From: Escherichia phage vB_EcoM_WFbE185
Length of the DNA: 64,000 nt
Reading direction: 5' to 3' (one strand)
Sequence record: MK373778.1
Below are positions 12,730 through 61,320 of the stretch, piece after piece; the first letter of the stretch is position 1; the number at the start of each line of letters is the position of its first letter. The position numbers and the translations under genes are program-made. Below the pieces are notes generated by a model. It was not told the DNA's origin, did not search any database, and saw only the letters and a program-made list of their open reading frames with translations.

Positions 12730-12747
12730 GGGAGACTTCGGTCTCCC
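12730..12747 (+). terminator. intrinsic terminator after gene 23
   Basis: GGGAGAC-TTCG-GTCTCCC followed by ATTTTTGG. Confidence 0.75.
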
Positions 12748-12757
12748 ATTTTTGGTT

Positions 12758-13027
12758 TTATTTCTGTGCAATTTTGATGTAAGTTTTCAAAATATTTTGC
12801 CAATTAGGCATACCTTCTTGGACATATGCCGGAGAACCATCTTTGTTTTTGAATGATGCAAGTTTATCAGTGGCCCAATAACCTTTAGCTCGAGCTTCAG
12901 AATCAACTTTCATCCATACTTTGTTGAAGGCATTACCATTAACTTTTGCACCATATTTTTCTACTAACTTAACTGCTTCAGCTTCCAGAACTTTTAAAGT
13001 ATCTCGTAAGAAACGTGCTTTAGTCAT
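12758..13027 (-). CDS. hypothetical protein, antisense to the capsid cluster
   Basis: 89-aa ORF with SD AGGAG 7 nt upstream and its own early promoter; no recognised domain. Confidence 0.5.
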   Translation of the reverse strand: MTKARFLRDTLKVLEAEAVKLVEKYGAKVNGNAFNKVWMKVDSEARAKGYWATDKLASFKNKDGSPAYVQEGMPNWQNILKTYIKIAQK

Positions 13028-13057
13028 TTTGTTTACTCCTCTGTAGTTGATAAGTCT

Positions 13058-13087
13058 ATAGTATCACATATCAAATACGTTGTAAAC
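13058..13087 (-). promoter_or_regulatory. T4-type early promoter (GTTTAC-N18-TACTAT)
   Basis: Minus strand GTTTAC ... TGTGATACTATAGAC; drives the ORF at 12758-13027. Confidence 0.55.
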
Positions 13088-13093
13088 AATCTT

Positions 13094-13101
13094 TATAAAT
13101 A
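13094..13101 (+). promoter_or_regulatory. late promoter (TATAAATA) for gene 24
   Basis: Exact TATAAATA 27 nt upstream of the ATG. Confidence 0.6.
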
Positions 13102-13128
13102 ATCTATATCACATAAGGAAAAAATGCA

Positions 13129-14412
13129 ATGAGTAAAATCCAAAAATTATTGCGTGAATCTACAACGTCTACTAGCAACTCAATTGGTCGCCCAAATCTC
13201 GTTGCTTTGACTCGCGCTACGACTAAATTAATATATTCTGACATTGTAGCAACACAAAGAACTAATCAACCTGTTGCTGCTTTTTATGGTATCAAATATC
13301 TTAACCCAGATAACGAATTCACATTTAAAACCGGTGCTACTTATGCTGGCGAAGTTGGATATGTAGACCGAGAAAAAATTACCGAGCTCACAGAAGAATC
13401 AAAAGTCACACTAAATAAAGGCGATTTTTTCAAATATAATAATATCGTTTATAAAGTATTAGAAGATACACCGTTTGCAGATATTCAGGAAAGTGATCTA
13501 GAATTAGCTCTTCAGATTGCGGTCGTTCATTTAAAGGTACGGTTGTTTTCAGATGCAGCGGTAACAAGCAAATTTGAAAGCTCTGGTAGCGAAATTTCTG
13601 ATGCAAGATTCCAGATTAATAAATGGCAAACCGCTGTTAAATCTCGTAAACTTAAAACTGGCCTAACGGTTGAATTAGCGCAAGATTTGGAAGCGAATGG
13701 ATTTGATGCCCCTAACTTCTTAGAAGATTTACTTGCTACTGAAATGGCTGATGAAATTAATAAAGATATTCTTCAGTCTTTAATTACTGTATCGAAACGT
13801 TATAAAGTTACTGGAATTACTGACACCGGATTTATTGACTTGAGCTATGCGTCTGCTCCAGAAGCAGGTCGTTCATTATATCGAATGGTGTGTGAAATGG
13901 TATCACACATTCAAAAAGAGTCAACTTATACCGCAACGTTTTGCGTAGCTTCAGCTCGTGCAGCCGCTATTCTTGCTGCTTCAGGTTGGTTAAAACATAA
14001 GCCGGAAGATGATAAGTATCTTTCACAAAATGCTTATGGATTCTTGGCAAATGGATTACCTCTTTACTGCGATACTAACAGCCCGTTAGATTATGTTATT
14101 GTGGGTGTTGTAGAAAATATCGGCGAAAAAGAAATTGTAGGGTCCATCTTTTATGCTCCATACACTGAAGGAGTAGATTTAGATGACCCGGAACATGTTG
14201 GTGCATTTAAAGTTGTAGTTGATCCAGAAAGCTTGCAACCGTCTATCGGATTATTGGTTAGATATGCTTTATCAGCAAATCCTTACACAGTAGCAAAAGA
14301 CGAAAAAGAAGCGAGAATAATTGATGGTGGGGACATGGATAAAATGGCAGGACGTTCAGACTTGTCTGTTTTACTCGGTGTTAAATTGCCTAAAATTATT
14401 ATAGATGAATAA
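13129..14412 (+). CDS. 24: capsid vertex protein gp24
   Basis: 427 aa, gp23 paralog; late promoter upstream. Confidence 0.95.
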   Translation: MSKIQKLLRESTTSTSNSIGRPNLVALTRATTKLIYSDIVATQRTNQPVAAFYGIKYLNPDNEFTFKTGATYAGEVGYVDREKITELTEESKVTLNKGDFFKYNNIVYKVLEDTPFADIQESDLELALQIAVVHLKVRLFSDAAVTSKFESSGSEISDARFQINKWQTAVKSRKLKTGLTVELAQDLEANGFDAPNFLEDLLATEMADEINKDILQSLITVSKRYKVTGITDTGFIDLSYASAPEAGRSLYRMVCEMVSHIQKESTYTATFCVASARAAAILAASGWLKHKPEDDKYLSQNAYGFLANGLPLYCDTNSPLDYVIVGVVENIGEKEIVGSIFYAPYTEGVDLDDPEHVGAFKVVVDPESLQPSIGLLVRYALSANPYTVAKDEKEARIIDGGDMDKMAGRSDLSVLLGVKLPKIIIDE

Positions 14413-14420
14413 ACGAAAAA

Positions 14421-14436
14421 GGGACCGTACGGTCCC
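14421..14436. terminator. bidirectional terminator between gene 24 and rnlB
   Basis: Perfect palindrome GGGACC-GTAC-GGTCCC flanked by A5 and T5, between convergent genes. Confidence 0.75.
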
Positions 14437-14443
14437 TTTTTCG

Positions 14444-15442
14444 TTATGATACTAATTCAATCCATGCAGGACGCAGAACATCTTGCACCATTCGGACTAA
14501 TTCTTTCTTAACAAGATTCGGATTATCGGATGATGTTAATACAATACCTTCACGAGAAGTTTCTTCCAGAATATCTTGAACAGTCAATCCCATCACTTTG
14601 CCAAAATCTTTTGGCGTTACAGTCCCAATCTTAGAAATCACATTATTAACACGGTTTAATGTAACATAACAAGCTAGGACATCAAGCAAGTTTTTGTCAA
14701 TTTCGGTTAATGGAACCTGAGTTTTAATAGGCTTATCAGACTTTTTCTTTTCACTGAATTTAGAGTTCTTGCACTTAATAGCTACACGAGTACCGTTTGG
14801 CAGCCATTTAGGGAAACAAGGCTTCAGAACATAACCTTCTGCTGTATTATCGCCAATAACATTAGCATCAAATACACAATTATTTGCTTCTACAAGGTCT
14901 TCTGACGCAGTAGCATTATAAGCGGCTAAGACGGAATCAAGGTCATTTGGAATCGCGATAAGAGCATCGAATGTTCCACGACCGAGCATTGGTGCCATTT
15001 TAAAACCGAATTCATTACAGAAATCTTGCATTTCGTAATCGGTCAAATACGTATTATCACCACTTTCTGTATTGATAAGGATATCGAACACATAAAAATC
15101 TTTTTCACCGTAGTCAACACCTTTCTGGATTCCACCACCAGCGAATTCACCAAAGACCTGATATGATACAGCTCGAGAACTACCCATTACTTCTTGAACG
15201 TTTTTAATAGCCTTATCATACTTCTTGAGTACAATTTCATAACCATAAAAATCTTCTGCTGGAAGAATAGGGCCTGTGCGCTTGGCGCATGTGACGTTGT
15301 CACGTTCAATTATTAACGAGAAGTTAGTCCCATGGATTTTCTCACGTGCTACCCAAACACCAGTAGTCAAACCATTAGTGTAGAGTTTTTCAATAAACTT
15401 AGAGTTGTAGTGGTTTTCAAGACTGCTGTATTTCTTAAACAT
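14444..15442 (-). CDS. rnlB: RNA ligase 2
   Basis: 332 aa; [21 protein letters not shown]... with motif I KIHGTN matches recalled T4 Rnl2. Confidence 0.9.
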
Positions 15443-15533
15443 AAATCACCATTATAAATAATAATATCAAAATAATTAGCAGAGACTCTATCTCTGACCG
15501 GATGTTTAATTTGAATGGATAGAACCTAGATTC

Positions 15534-15559
15534 ATTATACCATCAAAAATTGTAAAGCA
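15534..15559 (-). promoter_or_regulatory. middle promoter (MotA box + -10) for rnlB
   Basis: Minus strand reads TGCTTTA, 13 nt, TATAAT. Confidence 0.5.
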
Positions 15560-15561
15560 TA

Positions 15562-15813
15562 TTAGAACTTGATTTCTATCCAATGACCATCACGCTGGTC
15601 GTGATTAATTTTGTACTGAAAGCCGTTATCACGAAGCCATTGACCGACTTGTTCAGTTATAGTTAAATCATTCTTTGACGGATAGTATGTAAATTGTGTC
15701 TGGCCTTTGTCAGCGGCTTTCTCTGCCATCGCAGAGAAGTTAGTAATAAAATCACTCAACAAATTAGCTTTAGTGGCCAGAGCCCTTTCTCTTAATTCCT
15801 GTGCAAAACTCAT
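15562..15813 (-). CDS. hypothetical protein (T4 24.2 position)
   Basis: 83-aa ORF; synteny only. Confidence 0.45.
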   Translation of the reverse strand: MSFAQELRERALATKANLLSDFITNFSAMAEKAADKGQTQFTYYPSKNDLTITEQVGQWLRDNGFQYKINHDQRDGHWIEIKF

Positions 15814-16010
15814 TTCTTCACCTTTTTGTTAATCAAACGTTTACGGTATACAACTTTTTCTTTTGCTTTAAACTTTGACCGAGCTGTCTCGGCTTTAGTC
15901 CATAGTAATCCAACTTCTTTAGGTTGTAAACCGATTTTTTGAGCAATTTCTACGAATGAAAATCCCGCCTCATGTAATGTATAAACTTCAACTTCAGCTC
16001 TCATAATCAA
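15810..16010 (-). CDS. hypothetical protein with possible helix-turn-helix (T4 24.3 position)
   Basis: 66-aa ORF; GFSFVEIAQKIGLQPKEV resembles an HTH; basic tail. Confidence 0.45.
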   Translation of the reverse strand: MIMRAEVEVYTLHEAGFSFVEIAQKIGLQPKEVGLLWTKAETARSKFKAKEKVVYRKRLINKKVKK

Positions 16011-16084
16011 TCCCGTATTATTTGGTTTGTGCCATTATATACATCAATCTCAAGTTGTGTTTTGTATGCTTTAAAAACGAAGAA

Positions 16085-16098
16085 AGGGGCCGAAGCCC
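16085..16098 (-). terminator. terminator after hoc
   Basis: GGGGC-CGAA-GCCCC; U-run on the minus transcript. Confidence 0.6.
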
Positions 16099-16105
16099 CT
16101 TACGA

Positions 16106-17524
16106 TTATGGATATGTATAGATGATACCAGTTTCCAAAGCAGTTTTATGGATGACGTATCCATTACGTGATTCTTGAACATCAACTTCTGGATAGTCTT
16201 TCATCATCTTCTGAAGAGTGTAACGATGCAGGTAGTATTTACTATCTGCATCTTCAGTTTTCCAATCTTTACCTTCTTCAGTCATTTTTTGTATTTCATC
16301 CATAACCCACCAACCGCACCAGATGTAAGCTGAAGTACGATGTGGAAGAGGATGAACATAAGGTAATTCACCTTCTGGTTCTGGAGCAACTTTATCGGTT
16401 ACCTGAACTTGTCCTTCTGCTGTAATAGTTTTGCTATCATAATCAGTAGCAGTAACGACGGCAGTCACTTCAATAGTTTGACTTCCAATAGATGAGGTAT
16501 CAACGGTATATACATTAGTTGACCCTTCTACAGGAGAAGAATCTTTCTTCCATGAATAAGCAATTTGTGCTTCTTCTGGTGCACCAGTAACATTAGCTGT
16601 AAATGTAGCCGAAGCATCTTGTTGAACATTAATAGAAGGAGGAGTCAATGTAACCTGTGGATTCATTGTCTTCTTATTAACCGTTAATGATACTTCATTC
16701 GAAGTAACTTCCTTTGCATCATAATCTGTCGCAGTTACTTGGGCTACACATTTAATTCTTTTTACTCCACTTGTAGTTGGAGTATAGCTAAATGTAGAGT
16801 TAGTTTCTCCACCAATCTGTGAATCATCTACATACCACTGATACGTAGCAGACGCTCCAACCGGTTGAGAAGCTAAGGCGGCAGTAAATTGAACTGGGGT
16901 TCCAATTACTCCGGCTGAAGGACTATTGGGAGTTACTGCCAACGTAGTTGTCTGCGTCTTTTTATTAACAGTCAGTGACACTTCATTAGAAGTAACGCTT
17001 AGTGCGTCATAATCTGTTGCGGTTACTTGAGCCACACACTTAATTCTTTTTACCCCGCTTTCGGCAGGAGTGTAATTGAATGTAGCGTTAGTTGCTTCGC
17101 CAACAGGAGAATCATCTACATACCATTGATAAGTAGCGTTTGCGCCTGATGGCTGCGAAGCTAAAGCGGCAGTAAATTCAATAGCTGTTCCGATTACTCC
17201 AGCGTCAGGGCTATTAGGAGTTACAGCTAAGGTAGTCGTTTGTGTCTTATTTTGAACTGTGATAGTTGTAGAAGCTTCTGCTGTTTCAGCTTCAGCTTCT
17301 GGAACTGTATTTGTTGCAACTACTTTAATAGACTTTTGACCTGCAGGTCCTTTTAACACATAATCAAAAGTTGCTTCAGCTCCATCTTGCGAAACATCAT
17401 CTACAGTCCAAGCATATGTAATAGTTCCACCTCCAGTTTCACCACTGGGAGTAGCAGTAAACTGCTGAGTCTGATCTATAACTCCAGTAGGTGTTTTAGG
17501 AGTTATATCAACTGTAAAAGCCAT
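16106..17524 (-). CDS. hoc: highly immunogenic outer capsid protein Hoc, four Ig-like domains
   Basis: 472 aa; repeated Ig-like modules plus C-terminal capsid-binding domain; position between 24.x and inh. Confidence 0.85.
   Translation of the reverse strand: MAFTVDITPKTPTGVIDQTQQFTATPSGETGGGTITYAWTVDDVSQDGAEATFDYVLKGPAGQKSIKVVATNTVPEAEAETAEASTTITVQNKTQTTTLAVTPNSPDAGVIGTAIEFTAALASQPSGANATYQWYVDDSPVGEATNATFNYTPAESGVKRIKCVAQVTATDYDALSVTSNEVSLTVNKKTQTTTLAVTPNSPSAGVIGTPVQFTAALASQPVGASATYQWYVDDSQIGGETNSTFSYTPTTSGVKRIKCVAQVTATDYDAKEVTSNEVSLTVNKKTMNPQVTLTPPSINVQQDASATFTANVTGAPEEAQIAYSWKKDSSPVEGSTNVYTVDTSSIGSQTIEVTAVVTATDYDSKTITAEGQVQVTDKVAPEPEGELPYVHPLPHRTSAYIWCGWWVMDEIQKMTEEGKDWKTEDADSKYYLHRYTLQKMMKDYPEVDVQESRNGYVIHKTALETGIIYTYP
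16670..17245 (-). repeat. tandem direct repeat (2 x ~288 bp) inside hoc, encoding two near-identical Ig-like domains
   Basis: Protein segments TTTLAVTPNSP...VSLTVNKKT occur twice in tandem; the underlying DNA copies (about 16670-16957 and 16958-17245) are clearly alignable. Confidence 0.8.
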
Positions 17525-17533
17525 AAGTTATCC

Positions 17534-18202
17534 TTATTTTAATGTTACGAAAGAAGAATTACGAGTTTCACGAATTAGAACTGATCCATCGCGATTAATA
17601 TAATAAATTAAGCTAAATAATGTTTGGTGAGCAGAAGCGTGCACAAAACTGGTTGGGCGAGATTTCCAATCTGGGGTTTCGTCTATCCATTGATAAATCC
17701 ACCAAGGAACAGTAACATATCCTGGGCCTTTGCCTAATTTAATGAGTGTAGGACTAAAATTTTCAGGCAGAACAAATTTTACTTCTTTATTTACCTCTGG
17801 CTCAGGCTCTTTTTCAGATTCAACAACCTGAGTAATTGCTTCTTCGAATTTATCATGGTCGAATTCTTTTTCTTGTTCGACAACTTCTAATACTTCAACT
17901 TGTTCTGTTGGAGAATCAAACAACAGAATAGCTTCTTCTTTAACTTCTTCGTTGGTGAAATTAACACCGTCCACATCATCTGCGGCAGTAATTAAATCGG
18001 TGATAGATAATCCATCAGTTTCAGGTAATGGTTCATCAGCCAGTGCGTTAAGAGCTTCTTCGATATCAATAACAATATTATCGAATGATTTTGTTTTCTT
18101 AACACTAATGCCAAATTGTTCCGCATATTCAAACAGTTTAGCTTTGGCTTCCTTTTTATCAGAAAGAGCACGTAACTCTTCAATATAGTCTTTATCGATC
18201 AT
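17534..18202 (-). CDS. inh: Inh, inhibitor of prohead protease
   Basis: 222 aa; synteny between hoc and uvsW; acidic central region. Confidence 0.6.
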   Translation of the reverse strand: MIDKDYIEELRALSDKKEAKAKLFEYAEQFGISVKKTKSFDNIVIDIEEALNALADEPLPETDGLSITDLITAADDVDGVNFTNEEVKEEAILLFDSPTEQVEVLEVVEQEKEFDHDKFEEAITQVVESEKEPEPEVNKEVKFVLPENFSPTLIKLGKGPGYVTVPWWIYQWIDETPDWKSRPTSFVHASAHQTLFSLIYYINRDGSVLIRETRNSSFVTLK

Positions 18203-18215
18203 GATATTTCCTCAT

Positions 18216-18223
18216 TATAAATA
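18216..18223 (+). promoter_or_regulatory. late promoter (TATAAATA) for uvsW
   Basis: Exact TATAAATA 29 nt upstream of the ATG. Confidence 0.6.
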
Positions 18224-18252: not shown

Positions 18253-19767
18253 ATGACTGACATTAAAGTACATTTTCATGATTTTAGTCACGTGCGCATT
18301 GAATGCGACGAAAGTACGTTTTACGAACTTCGTGACTTTTTTAGCTTTGAAGCTGACGGGTATAAATTTAACCCAAAATATCGCTATGGGCAATGGGATG
18401 GTAGAATTCGACTTTTAGATTACAATCGTTTGTTACCATATGGACTTGTAGGACAAATAAAAAAGTTCTGTAACAATATGAGTTATTCTGTATGGATTGA
18501 CCATAAAATCTTTGAGACCGAAGACCTTACCAGGGAAGATTTTGACGCATGGCTTTCTAAACAAGAAATTTATTCAGGCAACGCCAAAATCGAACCGCAT
18601 TGGTATCAAAAAGATGCAGTATATGAAGGACTAGTTAATCGTCGTCGAATTTTAAACCTTCCGACATCAGCAGGTAAATCACTAATCCAAGCACTTTTAG
18701 CTCGGTATTATCTAGAGAACTATGAAGGTAAAATTCTCATTATCGTCCCTACAACAGCATTGACAACCCAGATGGCTAATGATTTTGTTGATTATCGCTT
18801 GTTTAGTCATTCGATGATTAAGAAAATTGGCGGTGGCGCTGATAAAGCGGACAAATCTAAAAATGACGCTCCAATTATTGTTGGCACATGGCAAACTGTA
18901 GTTAAGCAGCCTAAAGAATGGTTCTCTCAGTTCGGTATGATGATGAATGATGAATGCCACTTAGCAACAGGCAAAAGTATTTCTTCAATCATCTCAGGAT
19001 TAAATAATTGCATGTTTAAATTCGGTTTATCTGGCTCATTAAGAGACGGAAAAGCCAATGTAATGCAGTACGTAGGTATGTTCGGTGAAATCTTCCGTCC
19101 TGTTAGCACGTCTAAATTAATGGAAGATGGACAGGTAACTGAGCTTAAGATTAATAGTATTTTCCTTCGTTATCCGGACGAATTCACCACCAAATTAAAA
19201 GGTAAAACATACCAAGAAGAAGTTAAAATTATTACCGGACTAAAACGTCGTACAAAGTGGATTGCTCAACTTTCAGTAAAATTGGCTAAGAAAGACGAGA
19301 ACGCCTTTGTAATGTTTAAACACGTTACACACGGTAAAGAAATATTTGAAGCTATTAAAGAGCTTGGATACGAAAAAGTTTATTACGTATCAGGTGAAGT
19401 TGATACTGAAACACGTAACGCGCTTAAAGTCATGGCAGAAAATGGTAAAGGCATTATTATTGTTGCATCATATGGAGTATTCTCTACTGGTATTTCAGTC
19501 AAGAATCTTCATCATGTTATTTTTGCCCATGGTGTTAAATCAAAAATTATCGTACTTCAAACCGTAGGTCGCGTGCTTCGTAAGCATGGTTCTAAAGCTG
19601 TTGCTACAGTTTGGGATCTCATCGACGATGCAGGTGTAAAACCTAAATCATTAAATACTAAAAAGAAGTATACTCATCTTAATTACTTGTTAAAACACGG
19701 TATTGATCGTATCCAACGTTACGCTGATGAGAAATTTAACTATGTAATGAAAACAATTAATTTATAA
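18253..19767 (+). CDS. uvsW: UvsW RNA-DNA and DNA-DNA helicase
   Basis: 504 aa; helicase motif I LPTSAGKS and motif II MMNDECH; near-identical to recalled T4 UvsW. Confidence 0.95.
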   Translation: MTDIKVHFHDFSHVRIECDESTFYELRDFFSFEADGYKFNPKYRYGQWDGRIRLLDYNRLLPYGLVGQIKKFCNNMSYSVWIDHKIFETEDLTREDFDAWLSKQEIYSGNAKIEPHWYQKDAVYEGLVNRRRILNLPTSAGKSLIQALLARYYLENYEGKILIIVPTTALTTQMANDFVDYRLFSHSMIKKIGGGADKADKSKNDAPIIVGTWQTVVKQPKEWFSQFGMMMNDECHLATGKSISSIISGLNNCMFKFGLSGSLRDGKANVMQYVGMFGEIFRPVSTSKLMEDGQVTELKINSIFLRYPDEFTTKLKGKTYQEEVKIITGLKRRTKWIAQLSVKLAKKDENAFVMFKHVTHGKEIFEAIKELGYEKVYYVSGEVDTETRNALKVMAENGKGIIIVASYGVFSTGISVKNLHHVIFAHGVKSKIIVLQTVGRVLRKHGSKAVATVWDLIDDAGVKPKSLNTKKKYTHLNYLLKHGIDRIQRYADEKFNYVMKTINL

Positions 19768-19792
19768 GGGCTTCGGCCCTTAGGAGATAAAA

Positions 19793-26254: not shown

Positions 26255-27364
26255 ATGATTAGTGTAAAAGAAATAGTAGTAGATGCAAAGGATTTAAATA
26301 AAGCAATCCCAGTCTCAGAAAGTGCTGGGCAAAGCACTAAAACCGAAACAACTACTAAAACTTATGTTGCTCAATTTCCTACAGGAAGAGCAGCCGGAAA
26401 TGACTCCACAGGAGACTTCCAGGTAACAGACCTTTATAAGAATGGATTATTATTTACCGCGTACAATATGTCTGCACGCGATTCAGGATCCCTCAGGAAT
26501 TTACGTCCGGCATATGCCGGTACTTCATCTAATGGTATCATATCAGATTTAACCGATAATGTGAAAGATGCAGTGACTAAATTCTCTAATGGATTGCTTC
26601 CTGCCGGGGCTAATAAATCTACTATAAATAAAACTCCTGTTGCTAATATACTTTTGCCACGTTCCAAATCTGATGTCGATACAACTTCGCATCGTTTTAA
26701 TGATATCGGTGATAGCCTTATTACTAAAGGTGGAGGTACTGCTACGGGTGTTTTAAGTAACATTGCTTCTACTGCAGTCTTTGGTGCATTAGATTCTATT
26801 ACTCAAGGGCTTATGGCTGATAATAACGAACAGATTTATACGACTTCTCGTAGTATGTACGGTGGTGCTGAGAACCGTACCAAAGTCTTTACATGGGATT
26901 TAACTCCGCGTTCAACTGAAGACCTTATGGCTATTATAAACATTTACCAGTATTTTAACTATTTCTCATATGGTGAGACCGGTAAATCACAGTACGCCCA
27001 AGAGATTAAAAGTTATTTAGACGAATGGTACCGTTCAACGTTTATTGAGCCTATGACGCCAGATGATGCAGTAAAAAATAAGACATTGTTTGAAAAGATT
27101 ACTGCGTCATTAACAAATGTATTAGTTGTAAGCAACCCTACAATTTGGATGGTTAAAAACTTTGGTTATACGTCTAAATTTGATGGATTAACTGACGTAT
27201 TTGGTCCATGCCAAATTCAAAGCGTACGTTTTGATAAAACTCCAAATGGACAATTTAATGGTCTTGCTGTTGCTCCTAACTTACCATCAACATTTACGTT
27301 AGAGATAACAATGCGAGAAATTATTACATTAAACCGTTCTTCACTTTATGCGGGGACTTTCTAA
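26255..27364 (+). CDS. 48: baseplate tail tube cap gp48
   Basis: 369 aa; synteny. Confidence 0.9.
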   Translation: MISVKEIVVDAKDLNKAIPVSESAGQSTKTETTTKTYVAQFPTGRAAGNDSTGDFQVTDLYKNGLLFTAYNMSARDSGSLRNLRPAYAGTSSNGIISDLTDNVKDAVTKFSNGLLPAGANKSTINKTPVANILLPRSKSDVDTTSHRFNDIGDSLITKGGGTATGVLSNIASTAVFGALDSITQGLMADNNEQIYTTSRSMYGGAENRTKVFTWDLTPRSTEDLMAIINIYQYFNYFSYGETGKSQYAQEIKSYLDEWYRSTFIEPMTPDDAVKNKTLFEKITASLTNVLVVSNPTIWMVKNFGYTSKFDGLTDVFGPCQIQSVRFDKTPNGQFNGLAVAPNLPSTFTLEITMREIITLNRSSLYAGTF

Positions 27365-28326
27365 TGTACTCTTTAGAAGAATTTAATAACCAAGCTATAA
27401 ATGCAGATTTCCAACGAAACAATATGTTTAGTTGTGTATTTGCTACTACACCATCAACCAAATCGTCTTCACTAATTTCGTCAATTGGTAGTTTTGCTTA
27501 TAATAACTTAGGGTTGGATTCAGATTGGCTAGGATTGTCTCAAGGTGATATCAATCAGGGCGTAACAACCCTGATTACAGCAGGAACACAGAAATTAATT
27601 CGAAAATCAGGTATAAGTAAATATCTGATTGGAGCAATGAGTCAACGTACGGTACAAAGCTTGTTAGGTGAGTTCACAGTAGGAACTTATCTGATAGACT
27701 TCTTCAATATGGCATATAATAATACAGGTTTAATGATTTATTCTGTAAAAATGCCTGAGAACCGATTATCTTATGAAACGGACTTCAACTATAACTCCCC
27801 GAACATCCGAATTACCGGTCGTGAAATGGACCCGTTAGTAATAAGCTTTAGAATGGATTCCGAAGCATCTAACTTTAGAGCAATGCAAGACTGGGTAAAC
27901 TCAGTCCAAGACCCTGTAACAGGTCTTCGTGCTTTACCACAAGACGTCGAAGCAGATATTCAGGTTAATTTACACGCACGAAATGGTTTACCACATACCG
28001 CTGTCATGTTCACAGGATGTATTCCTGTTAGTGTCTCTTCTCCTGAGTTAACGTATGATGGTGATAATCAGATAACAGTTTTTGATGTAACATTTGCTTA
28101 TCGCGTTATGCAATCAGGTGCTGTAAATAGACAGGCTGCTTTAGAATGGCTGGAATCAGGACTTATTAGTAGTGTTTCAGGAATGTTTGGAAATAATCAG
28201 AATGATTCTGGGCTAGGAAGTGCAGTATCAAGACTTTCTAGATTAGGTGGGACTGCTGGTGGCGTGTCTAATATAAACACACTGACAGGTGTGGTGAATT
28301 CTGCGTCAAGAGTTTTAGGACTATAA
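27364..28326 (+). CDS. 54: baseplate tail tube initiator gp54
   Basis: 320 aa; synteny and length. Confidence 0.9.
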   Translation: MYSLEEFNNQAINADFQRNNMFSCVFATTPSTKSSSLISSIGSFAYNNLGLDSDWLGLSQGDINQGVTTLITAGTQKLIRKSGISKYLIGAMSQRTVQSLLGEFTVGTYLIDFFNMAYNNTGLMIYSVKMPENRLSYETDFNYNSPNIRITGREMDPLVISFRMDSEASNFRAMQDWVNSVQDPVTGLRALPQDVEADIQVNLHARNGLPHTAVMFTGCIPVSVSSPELTYDGDNQITVFDVTFAYRVMQSGAVNRQAALEWLESGLISSVSGMFGNNQNDSGLGSAVSRLSRLGGTAGGVSNINTLTGVVNSASRVLGL

Positions 28327-28332
28327 GAAAAA

Positions 28333-28349
28333 GGGAGACAACGTCTCCC
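28333..28349. terminator. bidirectional terminator between gene 54 and the alt-downstream ORF
   Basis: GGGAGAC-AAC-GTCTCCC flanked by A-run and T-run, between convergent genes. Confidence 0.65.
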
Positions 28350-28358
28350 TTTAGGGGT

Positions 28359-28652
28359 TTATTTACGGAATGAAAGGAATGCTGGTGCTCGGAATGGAGT
28401 ATCATCTTTAGAGTATTTAACTAATACGACCATTGGTACCTCTGTTTCTAAATGACCTGTCACTACACCGATAAAAATTTGATCAGTGTGCTCAGGGTCA
28501 CGAAAGTTTTTAAGAGGTTCCATAGCAATATGGAATGCACCTGGGAATACTCGATTCAATTCGTCAATCACAGCTTCGTTAAAAACATCATCCGCTGGGA
28601 TAGCATCTTCAACTACTAGTTCTTGACCATTAAAGCGAAGCATAGATTTCAT
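28359..28652 (-). CDS. hypothetical protein downstream of alt
   Basis: 97 aa from the internal ATG at 28652, which has SD GAGGAA and lies downstream of an early promoter; the longer track ORF would start inside that promoter. Confidence 0.5.
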   Translation of the reverse strand: MKSMLRFNGQELVVEDAIPADDVFNEAVIDELNRVFPGAFHIAMEPLKNFRDPEHTDQIFIGVVTGHLETEVPMVVLVKYSKDDTPFRAPAFLSFRK

Positions 28653-28681
28653 AACGTTTTCCTCATGTTGTTGATGGGATG

Positions 28682-28711
28682 ATAGTATCACACATCCATG
28701 TGTTTGTAAAC
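28682..28711 (-). promoter_or_regulatory. T4-type early promoter
   Basis: Minus strand GTTTAC-N18-TACTAT; the -35 overlaps the alt stop codon. Confidence 0.55.
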
Positions 28712-35157: not shown

Positions 35158-35169
35158 AATTTCCTCAGT

Positions 35170-35185
35170 GGGAGCCGAAGCTCCC
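35170..35185 (-). terminator. hairpin between the 30.7-like and 30.6-like ORFs
   Basis: GGGAGC-CGAA-GCTCCC; no clear U-run, so it may be a stabilising or processing hairpin rather than a terminator. Confidence 0.35.
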
Positions 35186-35192
35186 AATTAAT

Positions 35193-35632: not shown

Positions 35633-36001
35633 TTATGCAACTTTAATCCAATTGTCTAAATTTAAAACACCTTTGGCTTTCATTTTTTCGATCAGGTTAT
35701 CTGCTGTAATGCGTCCATTTTGATACCATGTAACATCTTCAGAGTAACCAGTTTCTTCGTCAACATATGTTTCTGAACGAATTTTACCGGTAATAATAGT
35801 TTTTAATTCGTATGTGTCACCTGTGAAAAAGTTTGCTAACACAATTTTCCAAGAGAAATCATCAGAAGGACCTTCAGGGGTCATACAACCTACGAACTCA
35901 AATTGCTCTTTGTATAACATCCACTGGAATTCTTTAATTTCGATAGCTTTATAACCGTCGTGGTCTTTACATTTGATGTATGAGTTCAGATTGATTTTCA
36001 T
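35633..36001 (-). CDS. hypothetical protein (T4 30.8-like position)
   Basis: 122 aa; early promoter upstream. Confidence 0.5.
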   Translation of the reverse strand: MKINLNSYIKCKDHDGYKAIEIKEFQWMLYKEQFEFVGCMTPEGPSDDFSWKIVLANFFTGDTYELKTIITGKIRSETYVDEETGYSEDVTWYQNGRITADNLIEKMKAKGVLNLDNWIKVA

Positions 36002-36043: not shown

Positions 36044-36072
36044 ATAGTAACACATCCTACAGGAGAGTAAAC
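36044..36072 (-). promoter_or_regulatory. T4-type early promoter
   Basis: Minus strand GTTTAC-N17-TGTGTTACTATAGAC upstream of the ORF at 35633-36001. Confidence 0.55.
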
Positions 36073-36108: not shown

Positions 36109-36126
36109 GGGAGACCGAAGTCTCCC
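36109..36126 (-). terminator. intrinsic terminator after the small basic ORF
   Basis: Minus strand GGGAGAC-UUCG-GUCUCCC followed by UUUUG. Confidence 0.65.
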
Positions 36127-36131: not shown

Positions 36132-36311
36132 TTATGCAACAACCTTTCCAAAACGAGAAGCATCATCTCGAAGAACTGCACGTGCTCTGCGCATGATCTT
36201 CTCAACTGTTTGATTAATACGAGAGTTCGACCCACGCTTGTATCCAGCGCGTTTAGAGGTACCATCAACTTTCTTTTCAACTGCTTTCTTTGCTTTAGCT
36301 TGTTTTGCCAT
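36132..36311 (-). CDS. small highly basic protein
   Basis: 59-aa ORF, below the track cutoff, found by hand: MAKQAKAKKAVEKKVDGTSKRAGYKRGSNSRINQ...; SD AAGAG; terminator hairpin 6 nt after its stop. Confidence 0.5.
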   Translation of the reverse strand: MAKQAKAKKAVEKKVDGTSKRAGYKRGSNSRINQTVEKIMRRARAVLRDDASRFGKVVA

Positions 36312-45551: not shown

Positions 45552-45565
45552 GGGACCGAAGTCCC
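45552..45565 (-). terminator. hairpin after nrdB, just upstream of denA
   Basis: GGGAC-CGAA-GTCCC followed by ACUUUAUU and the denA ATG. Confidence 0.5.
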
Positions 45566-51822: not shown

Positions 51823-52215
51823 CTACTTTTTAAAAGTTTTTTGCAAAAGTTTGATGATTTCGTCGACGTTAGTTTCATCCACGATACAATGGATTTTTGT
51901 TACACCTAAAGTTATACCTTCGTTAGTAGGTTGAGGCTTTACTAAATCTACCTCAGTAAAGTATTTGAACTCGTCAGGATAAATCTCAAAATAAGTTTCA
52001 ATTTCACCACCGGCAGAACATACAGTACCATCTTCCATAGTTACACTTACTACGTTTGACGTATCGCTATCATAATCAGGTTCCATTCCGTTTACAACAA
52101 AACTAGGCCCGTGGAGTTCAATCAATTTTAACATCTTAGCGTTATTATGTGGTGCTTCTTGAACAAAGTCGTCTTTAAATAAAGGGTTAATGATATAAGA
52201 TTTTCCGATTTCCAT
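51823..52215 (-). CDS. hypothetical protein (frd.3 position)
   Basis: 130 aa; SD GAGGAA; early promoter upstream. Confidence 0.5.
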   Translation of the reverse strand: MEIGKSYIINPLFKDDFVQEAPHNNAKMLKLIELHGPSFVVNGMEPDYDSDTSNVVSVTMEDGTVCSAGGEIETYFEIYPDEFKYFTEVDLVKPQPTNEGITLGVTKIHCIVDETNVDEIIKLLQKTFKK

Positions 52216-52244
52216 TTTGATTTCCTCATGTTGTTGATAGGTCT

Positions 52245-52273
52245 ATACTAACACATCCAGGGAAGAAGTAAAC
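52245..52273 (-). promoter_or_regulatory. T4-type early promoter
   Basis: Minus strand GTTTAC-N17-TGTGTTAGTATAGAC upstream of the ORF at 51823-52215. Confidence 0.55.
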
Positions 52274-52304
52274 AACTTTTTCGGCAATTTACAGATACTC
52301 AAAA

Positions 52305-52322
52305 GGGAGACCGAAGTCTCCC
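52305..52322 (-). terminator. intrinsic terminator after gene 32
   Basis: Minus strand GGGAGAC-UUCG-GUCUCCC followed by UUUUGAG. Confidence 0.7.
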
Positions 52323-52328: not shown

Positions 52329-53228
52329 TTATAGACCAGCTAACAGGTCATCGAGGTCGCCATCGTCAGAAGACGAGGAACTCATGAAGTCATCTTCAGT
52401 TTTTGCAGAACTAAAGGCTTCCATGTCTTTATCAAAATCGTCGAGGTCAGAAGCAACTTTATCTGCAACAGAAGCTGCGGCAGCTGCTGCACCACCAAGA
52501 GCGGCAGTACCAAGAACTTGATTAAATTTAGTATTCAATTCTTCAAACGATTTGAACTTATCTTTAGAAGTCATTTCAGAAAGGTCAACCATTTGTTCGA
52601 ACAATTCTTTCTGGAAAGATTCATCATCAATGTTTGGAATCGCAGATTGATTCAGGAATTTAGATTCGTCGTAGTTACTGAAACCAGAAACCTGTTTAAC
52701 TTTCAGCACAAAGTTAGCACCTTCCCACGGGCAAGTTACATCAACAGGAGTTTCACCCATTTCAGTATCGACTGCAATCATTGCATTGATTTTGTCCCAA
52801 ATCTTTTTACCGAAACGATATTTGAATACTTTACCTTCATTATCTGGAGCTTGTGGGTCTTTAACAACCAGAATATTAGCCCAATAAGAAGTTTTACGTT
52901 TCAGTTGAGAATATTCAGTTTTGTTGGTATTGTACAGGTCATTTTTACTAATGTACTGACATACAGGACAAGAGTCATAATCGCCGTGTGTAGATGAACA
53001 GGTTTCAATATACCATTTACCATTTTTCTTGAACCCATGGTTAACAAGAATTGTAAACGGAAGTGCGTCATCTGTTTTTGCCGGCAGGAAACGAATTACC
53101 GCTTGACCATTACCGGATGCATCGAGTTTCAGCTTCCATTCACCTTTATCTTCTGAAGAGAAACCTTTGTTACCATTCAGTTTAGCCATCTGAGCTGCGA
53201 GGTCTGCGGTACTTTTACGTTTAAACAT
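52329..53228 (-). CDS. 32: single-stranded DNA-binding protein gp32
   Basis: 299 aa; zinc site [15 protein letters not shown] and acidic C-terminus; near-identical to recalled T4 gp32. Confidence 0.95.
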
Positions 53229-56182: not shown

Positions 56183-56214
56183 ATGAACCTCTTGTTCAGT
56201 TAGTCAACTTGTCT

Positions 56215-56244
56215 ATAGTAACACACTCATTTGAAAGCGTAAAC
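56215..56244 (-). promoter_or_regulatory. T4-type early promoter for rnh
   Basis: Minus strand GTTTAC-N18-TGTGTTACTATAGAC; back-to-back with the gene 34 late promoter. Confidence 0.55.
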
Positions 56245-56247
56245 TGG

Positions 56248-56255
56248 TATAAATA
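56248..56255 (+). promoter_or_regulatory. late promoter (TATAAATA) for gene 34
   Basis: Exact TATAAATA 30 nt upstream of the ATG. Confidence 0.6.
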
Positions 56256-56285
56256 AGTATTATTGAAACAATAAAGGAAAAACGA

Positions 56286-59200
56286 ATGGCCGACATCAAA
56301 CGTAAGTTCAGAGCCGAAGACGGTCTGGACGCCGGTGGCGACAAGATTGTTAACGTAGCATTAGCCGACCGTACAGTAGGTACTGATGGCGTAAACGTTG
56401 ACTTCCTGGTACAAGAAAACACCGTTCAAGTATATGATTCTACGCGTGGATATAACAAAGGATTTGTTGTTCTTTATGACAACCGTTTATATCAAGCAAT
56501 AAATGATATCGTGTCTCCTTCCGGGGCATTTAACCTTTTACAATGGCGTGCAGTTCGTACTGATGCACAATGGATAACTGTCGCTTCTGGGACTTATCAA
56601 CTTTCTTCAGGTGAATCTATTTCGGTTAACACTGGTGCCGGTAATGATATGGTTTTCACGTTGCCAAATACGCCGGTTGATGGTGATACTGTTGTTTTGG
56701 CTGATATTGGTGGAAGAACCGGGACAGTTAAAGTACAGATTAACGCGTCTGTTCAGAGTATTTTAAACTTTAGAGGTGAACAAGTTCGTACAGTTTTAAT
56801 GACGCGCCCACGTTCACAACTATTGTTTGTGTTTAGTAATCGTTTGTGGCAGATGTATATTACCGATTATGGTAAAGAATCAATCACTGTTACACCTGCG
56901 TCACCATATCAAGCACAAGCAAATGATTTTATCGTTAGTCGTTTTACTAGTGCAGCACCAATCAACATTACACTTCCACGTAATGCTAACAATGGTGATA
57001 TAATCAGCCTAGTCGATTTAGATAGATTAAACCCACTGTATCATACAATTGTTAAAACATTTGATGATACAACGTCTATTGGTGAAGTCGGGACTCATAT
57101 TGCCGAAGGCAGAAATGACTCTGACGCGTTTTTTGTTTTTGATGCTGCAAATAGTTTATGGCGTATATGGGAAGGCGACCAGAAATCGCGTCTTCGTATT
57201 ATCCGTGCGGATTCAAATATTCGTCCAAATGAAGAAGTTCTTATTTTTGGCACAAATAACGCTACAGCCGGAACTATTAATCTTACGCTGCCTTCCGGAA
57301 TTTTGAGTGGTGACACTGTTAAAATTTCAATGAACTACATGCGTAAAGGCCAAACAGTAAAAATTAAAGCTGCCGAAGGTGATACAATTGCTTCTTCTGT
57401 TGCATTGCTTCAGTTCCCTAAACGTTCTGAATATCCACCTGATGCTCAATGGGTCTCTGTTACTGAACTAGAATTCAATGGCACTACTTCATATGTTCCT
57501 GTATTAGAATTAGCGTATATCGAAGACACCGTTGCTGGTACACGTTATTGGGTCGTTCAACAAAACGTCCCTACGGTAGAACGTGTTGATGCTGGAACTG
57601 ATGCTACACGAGCTCGTTTAGGTGTTATTGCTCTTGCTACTCAAGCGCAAGCAAATGTTGATTTAGAGAATACTCCGGCTAAAGAAGTGGCTATTACTCC
57701 TGAAACGTTGGCAAATCGTACAGCAACTGAAGCTCGACGTGGTATCGCTAAAATTGCTACAACAGCACAAGTTAACCAGAATTCCACAGCAACATTTGTG
57801 GACGATACTATTGTTACGCCTAAAAAACTAAATGAGCGTACAGCAACTGAAACTCGTCGCGGTCTTGCTGAAATTGCTACTCAGGCTGAAACCGATGCTG
57901 GTCTTGATGACACAACGATTATTACGCCTAAGAAATTACAGGCCCGTCAGGGTTCTGAAACACTATCTGGTATAGTTAAATATGTATCAACTACTTCTGC
58001 TACTCCTGCTGAAACTCGTGGTACCGCAGGCACTAACGTTTATAATAAAACTGTAAATAATTTAACTATTTCTCCTAAAGCCCTTGACCAATATAAAGCA
58101 ACTTATGCTCAACAAGGTGCAGTAATTTTAGCTGTCGATAGTGAAGTAATTGCTGGTCAATCCCAAGCAGGTTATTCTCATGCTGTAGTAACTCCTGAAA
58201 CACTACATAAGAAAACTTCTACTGATGGACGTATTGGTTTAATTGAAATTGCTACGCAAGCAGAAACTAATGCTGGGACTGATTATACACGTGCAGTAAC
58301 ACCTAAGACGTTAAATGATAGGAAAGCTACGGAAGGATTATCCGGCATAGCCGAACTTGCTACGCAAGTCGAATTTGATACTGGAACTGATGATACTCGT
58401 ATCTCGACTCCACTGAAAATTAAAACTCATTTTGATTCTTCTGACCGTACCAGTGTTAATTCTGATTCCGGACTTATTGAAGAAGGAACCTTGTGGAACC
58501 ATTATACTCTTGATATTTCTAAAGCAAATGAAACACAACGTGGTACACTTCGCGTAGCGACTCAGGCAGAATCTAATGCAGGAACTTTAGATGATGTTCT
58601 TATTACTCCTAAAAAGCTTTTAGGGACTAAGTCCACTGAAACGTCTGAAGGCGTAATTAAGGTTGCTACTCAGGCTGAAACTGTAACAGGAACTTCTGCT
58701 AATACCGCTGTATCGCCTAAGAATTTAAAATGGATTGTCCAGTCTGAACCAACATGGGCTGCTACTACAGCAATTCGTGGATTCGTTAAAACTTCATCCG
58801 GTTCTATTACATTCGTTGGTAATGATACAGTTGGTTCAACACAACCTTTAGAATCATATGAAAAAAATAGCTATGCTATATCTCCATATGAATTAAACCG
58901 TGTACTTGCTAACTATTTGCCATTAAAAGCAAAAGCTGCTGACGCAAATTTATTAGATGGTCTAGATTCATCTCAGTTCATTCGTAGGGACATTGCACAG
59001 ACGGTTAATGGTTCACTAACCTTAACCCAACAAACGAATCTGAGTGCCCCTCTTGTATCAACTAGTACTGCTACGTTTGGTGGTTCAGTTTCGGCAAATA
59101 GTACATTAACTATTTCTAACTCTGGAACAGCTACTCGTCTGATTTTTGAAAAAGGACCTCAAACTGGAACTAACCCAGCACAGACGATGACTATCAGAGT

Positions 59201-60161
59201 TTGGGGAAATGAATTTGGTGGTGGTTCAGATACAACACGTTCTACTGTATTTGAAGTTGGTGATGAAACATCTAATCACTTTTATTCTCAACGTAATAAA
59301 GCCGGGAATATAACGTTTAGTATCAATGGTACTGTGATGCCAATAAATGTTAACGCTTCAGGCACGTTAAATGCGAATGGCATTGCAACATTTGGACGTT
59401 CAGTTACAGCCAATGGCGAATTCATTAGCAAGTCTGCAAATGCTTTCAGAGCAATTGGTGGTGATTACGGATTCTTTATTCGCAATGATGGCGGCAGCAC
59501 ATATTTTATGCTTACTGCATCTGGTGATCAGACAGGTGGATTTAATGGATTACGTCCATTATCAATTAATAATCAATCCGGACAAGTTACGATTGGTGAA
59601 AGCTTAATCATTGCCAAAGGTGCTACTATAAATTCTGGCGGTTTGACTGTTAACTCAAGAATTCGTTCTCAGGGTACTAAAACATCCGATTTATATACCC
59701 GTGCGCCAACATCTGATAATGTAGGATTCTGGTCAATTGATATTAACGATTCAGCCACTTATAACCAGTTCCCAGGTTATTTTAAAATGGTTGAAAAAAC
59801 TAATGAAGTGACTGGGCTTCCATACTTAGAACGTGGCGAAGAAGTTAAATCTCCTGGTACACTGACTCAGTTTGGTAACACACTTGATTCACTTTACCAA
59901 GATTGGATTACTTATCCAACAACCCCAGAAGCACGTACAACCCGTTGGACTCGTACATGGCAGAAAACTAAAAATTCTTGGTCAAGTTTTGTTCAAGTAT
60001 TTGATGGGGGTAACCCTCCTCAGCCATCTGATATTGGTGCTTTACCTTCTGATAATGCAACAATCGGAAACTTGACAATAAGGGATTTCTTAAGGATTGG
60101 TAATGTCCGCATTATTCCAGACCCTGTGAATAAATCTGTTAAATTCGAGTGGATTGAATAA
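56286..60161 (+). CDS. 34: long tail fiber proximal subunit gp34
   Basis: 1291 aa with the characteristic repeated ATPxxL / IATQAE motifs; late promoter upstream. Confidence 0.95.
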   Translation: MADIKRKFRAEDGLDAGGDKIVNVALADRTVGTDGVNVDFLVQENTVQVYDSTRGYNKGFVVLYDNRLYQAINDIVSPSGAFNLLQWRAVRTDAQWITVASGTYQLSSGESISVNTGAGNDMVFTLPNTPVDGDTVVLADIGGRTGTVKVQINASVQSILNFRGEQVRTVLMTRPRSQLLFVFSNRLWQMYITDYGKESITVTPASPYQAQANDFIVSRFTSAAPINITLPRNANNGDIISLVDLDRLNPLYHTIVKTFDDTTSIGEVGTHIAEGRNDSDAFFVFDAANSLWRIWEGDQKSRLRIIRADSNIRPNEEVLIFGTNNATAGTINLTLPSGILSGDTVKISMNYMRKGQTVKIKAAEGDTIASSVALLQFPKRSEYPPDAQWVSVTELEFNGTTSYVPVLELAYIEDTVAGTRYWVVQQNVPTVERVDAGTDATRARLGVIALATQAQANVDLENTPAKEVAITPETLANRTATEARRGIAKIATTAQVNQNSTATFVDDTIVTPKKLNERTATETRRGLAEIATQAETDAGLDDTTIITPKKLQARQGSETLSGIVKYVSTTSATPAETRGTAGTNVYNKTVNNLTISPKALDQYKATYAQQGAVILAVDSEVIAGQSQAGYSHAVVTPETLHKKTSTDGRIGLIEIATQAETNAGTDYTRAVTPKTLNDRKATEGLSGIAELATQVEFDTGTDDTRISTPLKIKTHFDSSDRTSVNSDSGLIEEGTLWNHYTLDISKANETQRGTLRVATQAESNAGTLDDVLITPKKLLGTKSTETSEGVIKVATQAETVTGTSANTAVSPKNLKWIVQSEPTWAATTAIRGFVKTSSGSITFVGNDTVGSTQPLESYEKNSYAISPYELNRVLANYLPLKAKAADANLLDGLDSSQFIRRDIAQTVNGSLTLTQQTNLSAPLVSTSTATFGGSVSANSTLTISNSGTATRLIFEKGPQTGTNPAQTMTIRVWGNEFGGGSDTTRSTVFEVGDETSNHFYSQRNKAGNITFSINGTVMPINVNASGTLNANGIATFGRSVTANGEFISKSANAFRAIGGDYGFFIRNDGGSTYFMLTASGDQTGGFNGLRPLSINNQSGQVTIGESLIIAKGATINSGGLTVNSRIRSQGTKTSDLYTRAPTSDNVGFWSIDINDSATYNQFPGYFKMVEKTNEVTGLPYLERGEEVKSPGTLTQFGNTLDSLYQDWITYPTTPEARTTRWTRTWQKTKNSWSSFVQVFDGGNPPQPSDIGALPSDNATIGNLTIRDFLRIGNVRIIPDPVNKSVKFEWIE

Positions 60162-60169
60162 GAGGTATT

Positions 60170-61297
60170 ATGGAAAAATTTATGGCTAAGTTTGGACAAG
60201 GATACGTCCAAACGCCATTTTTATCGGAAAGCAATTCAGTACGATTTAAATTAAGCATAGCGGGCTCTTGCCCGCTATCAACATCTCCTGCTTATATTAA
60301 GTTCCAGGATAATCCACTTGGGTCCCAGGTTTTTTCCGTTGGATTAAACGTTCGTGTAATAAATCCTACAACGGGTGCAGTAGTTGAATCTAAGACATAT
60401 AATTTCTCTACTGAAAACGACGCCACGTCAAGTGCATTTGTTACTTTCATGGACACATATGCTTCAAATTTTATATTTGCTCTTGTTACTAACGCTAAAA
60501 CAAACTTTCCGCCAGAAGTTCTTGCATGGTTTAATAAAGCCGGAAGTTCTGCTATTCCATTAGCTCAACAAGTTTTAAATATAGTGGACATTTCTTATTC
60601 GGCATTTTATATTTCTGGTAAGAATGCTATAGCACTAGAACATATTAAGTATAGTAATAAGAAAACTTCAACCGACTATAGTACACCACTTGATGTTGTG
60701 TACGACACGATCGATGATATTGGTGCTACCGGCTTCCCTAGTCGTACGTACGAATCGACAGACACATTTTTATCTGCTGTTGGAGGTACTAATAATGAAA
60801 TTAAAAGGATGCCTACAACGTCCATTATTACACCTCTCGCTGGGTATAAATTGAAGCCTGGAGATTTCCTTTATATGAAATTCCAACTAATGGCCGATGC
60901 TGATTTGTTAGCACAAGGGACGACACGACTTTCTATTCGTTTCTTTAAATCTCCTTCTACTTCACCTATTTCATTTAAGGATATAAACTTTGATGGGGCT
61001 GCAGGTGAATGGAAGATATATGAAGACTACATAGAAATTCCTGCTGGTGCTGACGGGTTCACGATTTATTGTTATCGTACAGCTCCAGTCGGGCAAGGTG
61101 GATTAAGAAACGTTATATTCACTGAAGTATCATGTAATGGAAGCGTTTCAAAACCTGCTGAGTTTGGTATAAATGGTATTCGTGTAAATTATGTTTCAGA
61201 ATCTTTAAGTGCTCCAGACATAATGACATTACCTACTCAATCTTCAACTGATACTGGTAAGGTATTTGGACAAGAATTTAAAGAAGCATCAGAATAA
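60170..61297 (+). CDS. 35: long tail fiber hinge protein gp35
   Basis: 375 aa; synteny. Confidence 0.9.
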   Translation: MEKFMAKFGQGYVQTPFLSESNSVRFKLSIAGSCPLSTSPAYIKFQDNPLGSQVFSVGLNVRVINPTTGAVVESKTYNFSTENDATSSAFVTFMDTYASNFIFALVTNAKTNFPPEVLAWFNKAGSSAIPLAQQVLNIVDISYSAFYISGKNAIALEHIKYSNKKTSTDYSTPLDVVYDTIDDIGATGFPSRTYESTDTFLSAVGGTNNEIKRMPTTSIITPLAGYKLKPGDFLYMKFQLMADADLLAQGTTRLSIRFFKSPSTSPISFKDINFDGAAGEWKIYEDYIEIPAGADGFTIYCYRTAPVGQGGLRNVIFTEVSCNGSVSKPAEFGINGIRVNYVSESLSAPDIMTLPTQSSTDTGKVFGQEFKEASE

Positions 61298-61302
61298 ATT
61301 TA

Positions 61303-61320
61303 GGGAGACTTCGGTCTCCC
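61303..61320 (+). terminator. intrinsic terminator after gene 35
   Basis: GGGAGAC-TTCG-GTCTCCC followed by ATTTTTG. Confidence 0.7.

Follow-up and report, generated by a model that had tools for sequence, protein, structure and literature searches.

A predicted terminator hairpin found unchanged after several genes of RB69-like phages

Why should several genes of one phage, on both strands, be followed by exactly the same hairpin? Escherichia phage vB_EcoM_WFbE185 raises this question within a 64,000-nt stretch of its genome (sequence record MK373778.1; hereafter the window, meaning that whole stretch), in which one 18-nt hairpin follows four genes. A first-pass annotation had read the four elements as terminators and offered selection on the sequence itself, for example as a protein or RNase recognition site, or spread by recombination as reasons for their identity. 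We conclude that the four 18-mers, together with a fifth hairpin having the same stem, are very probably Rho-independent terminators of Mosigvirus, and that their identity is best accounted for by a narrow repertoire of stems and strong purifying selection. The hairpins are known and ordinary terminators that public Mosigvirus genome records already label as such; what sets them apart is only that one hairpin stands unchanged at several genes, across two phage genera.

Anatomy, position and surroundings of the hairpin

A search of the window for GGGAGACTTCGGTCTCCC returned exactly four copies, where dinucleotide-preserving shuffles of the window gave an expectation of 0.00, and the coordinates and strands first reported for the hairpin and its U-run were confirmed (Table 1). 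No extra copy was present in the window at up to three mismatches. In a 7-mer search, the arm GGGAGAC and its complement were confined within the window to these four copies and the fifth hairpin. The loop and closing pair are identical in all four copies (...GAC-UUCG-GUC..., a C-G-closed UUCG), and the copies thus belong to the extra-stable C(UUCG)G tetraloop class, to which the fifth hairpin, with its GUU loop, does not. The C(UUCG)G tetraloop is very stable and has long been known in T4 terminators. The class was reportedly first described from T4 intercistronic regions (Tuerk et al. 1988, PNAS 85:1364, cited via PMC3972237).

Folded as RNA, the bare 18-mer reached -12.0 kcal/mol as a 7-bp stem capped by UUCG, a value that no or few shuffles matched. 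With their natural flanks, the four sites folded at -13.4 to -16.1 kcal/mol (z -2.8 to -4.8). The stems are 7-8 bp long, and five of the pairs are G-C. An eighth pair is supplied by T-A at the gene 23 copy (12729-12748; -16.1 kcal/mol with flanks, z -4.1) and by a flanking A-U pair at the copy behind the T4 30.9 homologue, with UUUGUG as its tail. Each copy starts 5-24 nt past a stop codon, always in sense orientation relative to the upstream gene, and on that gene's strand it runs into ATTTTTGG (gene 23), TTTTGTG (30.9), TTTTGAG (gene 32) or ATTTTTGT (gene 35). The corresponding 3' U-tracts are AUUUUUGG, UUUUGUG, UUUUGAG and AUUUUUGU, the tail of the gene 23 copy being TTTTTGGTTTT and that of the gene 35 copy AUUUUUG. 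All four copies therefore combine the features of an intrinsic terminator, namely a stable G/C-rich stem-loop, an adjacent 3' U-tract and a sense position at the end of a transcription unit, and the terminator reading of the first-pass annotation is upheld. No Rfam family was detected at gathering thresholds anywhere in the 64-kb window.

The window is 96-98% identical to Mosigvirus genomes (RB69-like T4-type coliphages), and the RefSeq annotation of Shigella phage phi25-307 transfers onto it gene by gene. The open reading frames (ORFs) and the annotation of relatives agree with the labels first given to the upstream genes, that is, gene 23, gene 32, gene 35 and a small basic ORF. A 32-nt query around the gene 35 copy had matches in 380 of 50,697 phage records; Mosigvirus records typically contained five matching places each, and several label them 'terminator'. 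In the Mosigvirus record OL960577, the gene 35 copy is labelled 'rho-independent terminator; discovered using WebGeSTer and TransTermHP', beside 'TATAAATA T4-late promoter'. Deposited Mosigvirus genomes (e.g. OL960577, MH243438, MK373784, NC_055708) have the identical sequence at the identical position with a terminator predicted, but their annotations handle the sites singly and pass over the identity of the copies.

On this anatomy, we propose that the RNA of each 18-mer would form a 7-8 bp stem, G-rich on one arm and C-rich on the other, with a C(UUCG)G cap and a U-tract, and that hairpin and U-tract together would release the host RNA polymerase and leave a nuclease-resistant 3' end. The gene 23 and gene 35 copies would end late plus-strand transcripts, and the copies behind the 30.9-like ORF and gene 32 would end early/middle minus-strand transcripts. 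The 18-mer would accordingly mark where the transcription units of gene 23, 30.9, gene 32 and gene 35 end in RB69-like phages. As a terminator part it is a strong and compact candidate, and no new annotation is needed.

On the minus strand, the fifth hairpin, overlooked in the first-pass annotation, reads AAAGGGAGAC-GUU-GUCUCCCUUU: its 7-bp arms are the same, its loop has 3 nt, and AAA/UUU extends the stem. The genes on either side, 54 (27364-28326, +) and alt.-3-like (28359-28691, -), converge on it, and it probably terminates transcription in both directions. Its plus-strand loop is AAC in the window and in RB69, and GTT in phi25-307 (window 28333-28349; compare L001, 16829-16845), with identical stems and flanks. 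This difference is a small loop inversion, of the type made by template switching in palindromes.

We then compared the surroundings of the four copies. In an alignment with 60 nt of flank on either side, no column outside the 18-mer, the T-run and a scatter of AT positions was invariant, and neither target-site duplications nor terminal repeats were found within these flanks. The first-pass annotation had held that flank identity reaching further would indicate segmental duplication; the flanks proved unrelated. A segmental duplication was rejected, because the flanks of the four copies fail to align. Short similarities do exist within each pair: the late-gene copies, after genes 23 and 35, have ATTTN[18]ATTTTTG in common ([18] being the 18-mer), which amounts to 30 nt with one mismatch, and the two minus-strand copies have [18]TTTTG in common.

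The minus-strand copies also resemble a known arrangement. PeSL cassettes (promoter-early stem-loops) pack a terminator stem-loop, a sigma-70-like early promoter, a Shine-Dalgarno sequence and a start codon into about 100 bp of intergenic DNA and have a lineage-specific stem consensus (Arbiol et al. 2010, PMC2839356; Comeau et al. 2014, PMC4122927); in the T4/PST group the promoter consensus is TTTACW-N17-TAYWAT (PMC2839356; PMC4122927). Both minus-strand copies are followed, 32-36 nt on, by GAAAAAGTT...GTTTACT-N16-TA(C/G)TATAGAC, then a Shine-Dalgarno sequence and a start codon. Because a T4-type early promoter comes after each, we consider these two copies to be PeSL-type terminator/promoter cassettes: within about 35 nt of the stem-loop come an AT-rich stretch and a TTTACW-N16/17-TAYWAT promoter, and then a Shine-Dalgarno sequence and a start codon. 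An ORF indel adjoins the gene 32 cassette. The promoters precede a 122-amino-acid (aa) ORF at 35633-36001 (30.8 homologue) and a 130-aa ORF at 51823-52215 (frd.2 homologue). The plus-strand copies do not have this layout; at gene 23 there is a late terminator alone, and at gene 35 a terminator combined with a late promoter.

The pattern TTTAC[AT]-N16-18-TANNAT had ten T4-type early promoter matches in the window, all ten on the minus strand (13086, 15930, 28710, 35627, 36071, 39655, 42544, 43949, 45132 and 52272), as expected from the direction of T4 early transcription. A hairpin lies upstream of only two of these ten sites, in the 30.9 and gene 32 cassettes.

Table 1. Coordinates of the hairpins and associated features in the window
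Feature	Position	Strand	Remarks
Predicted terminator hairpin after gene 23 (major capsid protein, ORF 11137-12705, +)	12730..12747	+	starts 24 nt past stop
Predicted terminator hairpin after 59-aa basic ORF (36132-36311, -; T4 30.9 homologue)	36109..36126	-	starts 5 nt past stop
T4-type early promoter GTTTACT-N16-TACTAT	36044..36072	-	36 nt downstream of 30.9-site hairpin
Predicted terminator hairpin after gene 32 (single-stranded-DNA-binding protein, 52329-53228, -)	52305..52322	-	starts 6 nt past stop
T4-type early promoter GTTTACT-N16-TAGTAT	52245..52273	-	32 nt downstream of gene 32 hairpin
Predicted terminator hairpin after gene 35 (60170-61297, +)	61303..61320	+	starts 5 nt past stop; annotated in OL960577
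T4 late promoter TATAAATA for gene 36 (ATG at 61361)	61328..61335	+	directly after gene 35 terminator; annotated late promoter in OL960577
Fifth hairpin, GGGAGAC/GUCUCCC stem	28330..28352	-	gapped search; core 28333-28349
ORF245c/frd.3 indel region	52215-52300		compared with L297 42680-43057 and L122 46530-46947

The hairpin at orthologous sites

C(UUCG)G hairpins are common in genomes of this kind. A census of perfect ones, with stems of 4 bp or more (5 bp or more for Kosakonia phage Kc304), counted 9 in the 64-kb window, 21 in the whole genome of phi25-307, 18 in that of T4 and 22 in that of Kc304. Within the lineage of the window, both phi25-307 and RB69 have the exact 18-mer behind gene 23, 30.9 and gene 32. 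The gene 35 copy of phi25-307 has a point mutation in the loop (UUCA) and its gene 54 copy a GUU-type loop; in RB69, gene 35 is followed by AAGGAGAC-UUCG-GUCUCCUU, a GGAGAC stem.

The 18-mer also extends beyond Mosigvirus. In Kc304, a member of Winklervirus, the exact 18-mer follows gene 23, 30.9, gene 32 and gene 35, plus nrdB. Between the window and Kc304, the four orthologous 18-mers are identical at 72 of 72 nt, compared with 84 of 200 nt (42%) in the 25-nt flanks anchored on the hairpins. At the nrdB site the window has GGGAC-UUCG-GUCCC (45552-45565, -) where Kc304 has GGGAGAC-UUCG-GUCUCCC in similar, conserved flanks, a symmetric change of 2 bp in both arms.

The whole T4 genome contains zero copies of the 18-mer. 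Its stem after gene 23 is GGGAACC; 30.9 and soc are both followed by one and the same GGACUCC hairpin; gene 32 is followed by GGGGACC with a CUAGA loop, gene 35 by GGGACCC/GGUUCCC, and gene 54 by GGGGACC with a GAAA loop. In JS98 the corresponding sequences are AUGGGAGAC (gene 23), AUGGGACUC (30.9), GGGAAGAC (gene 32) and AAGGAACC (gene 35). The comparison with T4 terminators, which the first-pass annotation had called for, therefore has two sides. The hairpins of the window belong to the same class as the T4 C(UUCG)G terminators, which likewise have a G/C-rich stem closed by C-G, a UUCG loop, a U-tract and an intercistronic position just past stop codons, and T4 also has UUCG hairpins after gene 23 and 30.9. 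The T4 stems at orthologous sites differ, however, and T4 reuses a given hairpin at most twice, whereas the lineage of the window has one stem at five sites. From the Kc304 pattern, we infer that the identity across sites is old or recurrent, strongly maintained in some genera and lost nearly everywhere in T4 and JS98.

Downstream of gene 32, two isolates in the IMG collection differ from this picture. In 2974787500 (L207, Mosigvirus-like), the gene 32 stop is followed directly by the early promoter (GTTTACATT...TACTATAC), without a terminator hairpin. In the related isolate 2974742932, the region is identical to that of T4, with the GGGGACC-CUAGA hairpin, which indicates that this intergenic segment has been exchanged between genera.

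T4-like contigs from IMG/VR almost always had a hairpin and T-run at the orthologous sites (about 57 contigs for gene 23, 29 for gene 32 and 24 for gene 35/36; the last site was probed with gp36, gp35 being too divergent and giving 2 loci only). Their stems come from a small set (GGGAGAC, GGGAGCC, GGAGCC, GGGACC, GGGAACC) in which the two arms change together, and UUCG is the usual loop. Because hairpin and T-run are near-universal while the stems differ by paired changes, structure is what the subfamily conserves, and other sequences work at these sites.

In IMG/VR as a whole, the 18-mer occurred in at least 120 stretches with unrelated flanks, many of them from contigs that are not T4-like. 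Among the matches listed, a T-run followed the UUCG-sense strand in 89 of 103 unique contexts, compared with 25 of 103 on the opposite strand. This bias across unrelated contexts suggests that the 18-mer is a recurrent terminator in many phages. We also considered whether it is an exceptionally favoured phage sequence and rejected this, since a permuted stem of the same composition (GGAGGAC...GUCCUCC) occurred in 108 stretches, so that no particular preference for the 18-mer is apparent. In 1.07 Mb of seeded loci, 17 other UUCG hairpins had diverse stems.

Possible causes of the identity

We account for the identity of the copies in two parts. T4-like phages would draw on a narrow set of terminator stems, whose recurring traits are GGG at the base (CCC beside the U-tract), a 5' arm rich in purines, and UUCG closed by C-G. 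Strong purifying selection, possibly aided by occasional short-patch recombination or palindrome-templated correction, would then keep the copies unchanged. The suggestion of the first-pass annotation that selection acts on the sequence itself is thus sustained in part: the 72 of 72 nt kept between Mosigvirus and Winklervirus beside diverged flanks speak for it, and the other stems used by T4 and JS98 at the same sites speak against it. The conservation is consistent with purifying selection on a hairpin in which few single changes are tolerated, and also with mutual correction by short-patch recombination.

Three points weigh against our overall reading. The U-tracts UUUUGUG and UUUUGAG are short or interrupted, with four uninterrupted U, and may give partial termination. 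A limited repertoire alone does not easily explain complete identity at four of four sites between genera whose flanks agree so little. Nor does it explain the apparent all-or-none pattern among genera.

We regard it as a possible but tentative explanation that the terminators were copied from each other, by short-patch gene conversion, PeSL-type recombination or palindrome-templated correction, and so became homogenised within the genome. Such copying concerns the cause of the identity and not the function of the hairpins, and it can hold together with their being terminators under selection. Recombination had been proposed as the route by which the 18-mer spread, and this is plausible insofar as two copies lie in recombination-prone PeSL-type cassettes, but the statistics are weak once the lineage of the window is left out. 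In a column permutation over 21 distinct genome profiles, stems matched between sites of the same genome in 16 of 60 pairs, compared with 6.9 expected (P ~0.001); six of the 16 matches came from the window's own lineage, which had prompted the question and so introduces ascertainment bias, and the collapsing of identical profiles removes phylogenetic non-independence only partly. Without that lineage, 10 of 54 pairs matched, compared with 5.6 expected (P = 0.04 with 5-nt arms, 0.13 with 6-nt arms). Concerted evolution as a general rule of T4-like genomes was rejected, since the permutation gave a significant result only with that lineage in it.

Individual genomes present the same tendency. 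GGGAGAC stands at 3-5 sites in Mosigvirus, Winklervirus and two IMG isolates, and GG(G)ACC at three sites in three isolates; in T4, the hairpins after genes 23 and 35 are nearly the same, and those after 30.9 and soc are identical. The similarity of the gene 23 and gene 35 copies over 30 nt, and of the 30.9 and gene 32 copies over the 18-mer and TTTTG, is also what copying would produce, although common tails are under functional constraint as well. Since a second genus bears the 18-mer at these four sites too, the state may instead be ancestral and conserved. The inverted loop of the fifth hairpin between close relatives and the symmetric nrdB change within conserved flanks show that palindromes here change by templated events. 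Templated mutation in quasi-palindromes has reportedly been described in T4 by Ripley and colleagues. In addition, PeSL crossovers have been mapped inside a stem-loop (PMC2839356).

A broader variant, which we consider rather unlikely, is that an active genome-level process holds the terminators identical, be it short-patch gene conversion, palindrome-templated repair or co-evolution with a lineage-specific hairpin binder. Such a process would explain why the 18-mer is kept at four to five sites in Mosigvirus and Winklervirus, whereas nearly all of these sites have diverged in T4 and JS98. The evolutionary question posed by these hairpins is whether dispersed T4-like terminators are kept identical by constraint alone or by recombination among them. 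If recombination is involved, the PeSL concept would cover late-gene terminators as well as early-gene cassettes, and these phages would offer a tractable viral example of concerted evolution of regulatory hairpins.

It is improbable that a phage or host protein or RNase holds the exact 18 bases fixed by recognising them. The identity across two genera despite diverged flanks would be expected of a recognition site, the stem contains GGAG, and a RegB-like endoribonuclease is annotated in the lineage of the window. RegB, the one known sequence-specific T4 RNase, however, cuts single-stranded GGAG followed by an A-rich tail (GGAGRAYARAA), and 16 T4 RNAs with GGAG in stable structures, often UUCG-capped terminators, are RegB-resistant (PMC1702504). 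In the 18-mer, GGAG is paired in the stem and followed by ACUUCGG, and the RNase site proposed in the first-pass annotation is unsupported. Moreover, T4, JS98 and many other genomes use other stems at orthologous sites, variation is tolerated at the gene 35 copy within the lineage (a UUCA loop in phi25-307, a GGAGAC stem in RB69), and the 18-mer is no commoner in viral contigs than the permuted control.

The suggestion that the identical repeats mediate rearrangements fared no better: neither a rearrangement endpoint nor, in a further difference from PeSL cassettes, a recombination junction was found inside the identical hairpins when the window was compared with RB69, phi25-307, T4, JS98 and Kc304. 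An ORF of about 75 aa lies between the gene 32 cassette and frd.2 in RB69 (ORF245c) and T4 (frd.3), and the window and phi25-307 do not have it. The junctions of this indel fall in the promoter spacer and in a repeated 5'-UTR/Shine-Dalgarno leader (ATCAACAA..ATGAGGAAA..AAAATG), outside the hairpin. A role at the DNA level, as a recombination hotspot, an endonuclease site or a mobile or segmentally duplicated repeat, is very improbable, because the near-perfect palindrome of the DNA and the indels adjoining the gene 32 cassette (ORF245c/frd.3 present or absent, the hairpin missing in one IMG isolate) are set against the orientation of every copy with the transcription of its upstream gene, with the T-run on that strand, the unrelated flanks free of duplications and terminal repeats, the position of the indel junctions, and a gene order between copies that is conserved from T4 to Kc304.

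Neighbouring genes and other hairpins

The gene 23 copy sits between gene 23 and a convergent 89-aa ORF (12758-13027, -). Elsewhere in the window, relatives have an aroF-like DAHP synthase (phospho-2-dehydro-3-deoxyheptonate aldolase) annotated beside dCMP deaminase, at a position estimated as ~38.2-39.2 kb by offset from L001 26720-27712; T4 is without the gene here.

A perfect 34-nt palindrome at 14412-14445 (AACGAAAAAGGGACC-GTAC-GGTCCCTTTTTCGTT) has a 15-bp stem and a self-complementary loop. It bridges gene 24 (13129-14412, +) and rnlB (14444-15442, -), which converge here, and overlaps the stop codon of each; it probably terminates transcription in both directions.

Two other C(UUCG)G hairpins are without a U-tract and lie directly before a Shine-Dalgarno sequence. 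One, at the uvsW/uvsW.1 junction (19765-19782, +), reads TAAGGGC..GCCCTTA followed by GGAGAT; the other (35169-35186, -) reads TGGGAGC..GCTCCCA followed by CTGAGGAAAT. Both are more likely to be intercistronic elements acting on mRNA stability or translation than terminators.

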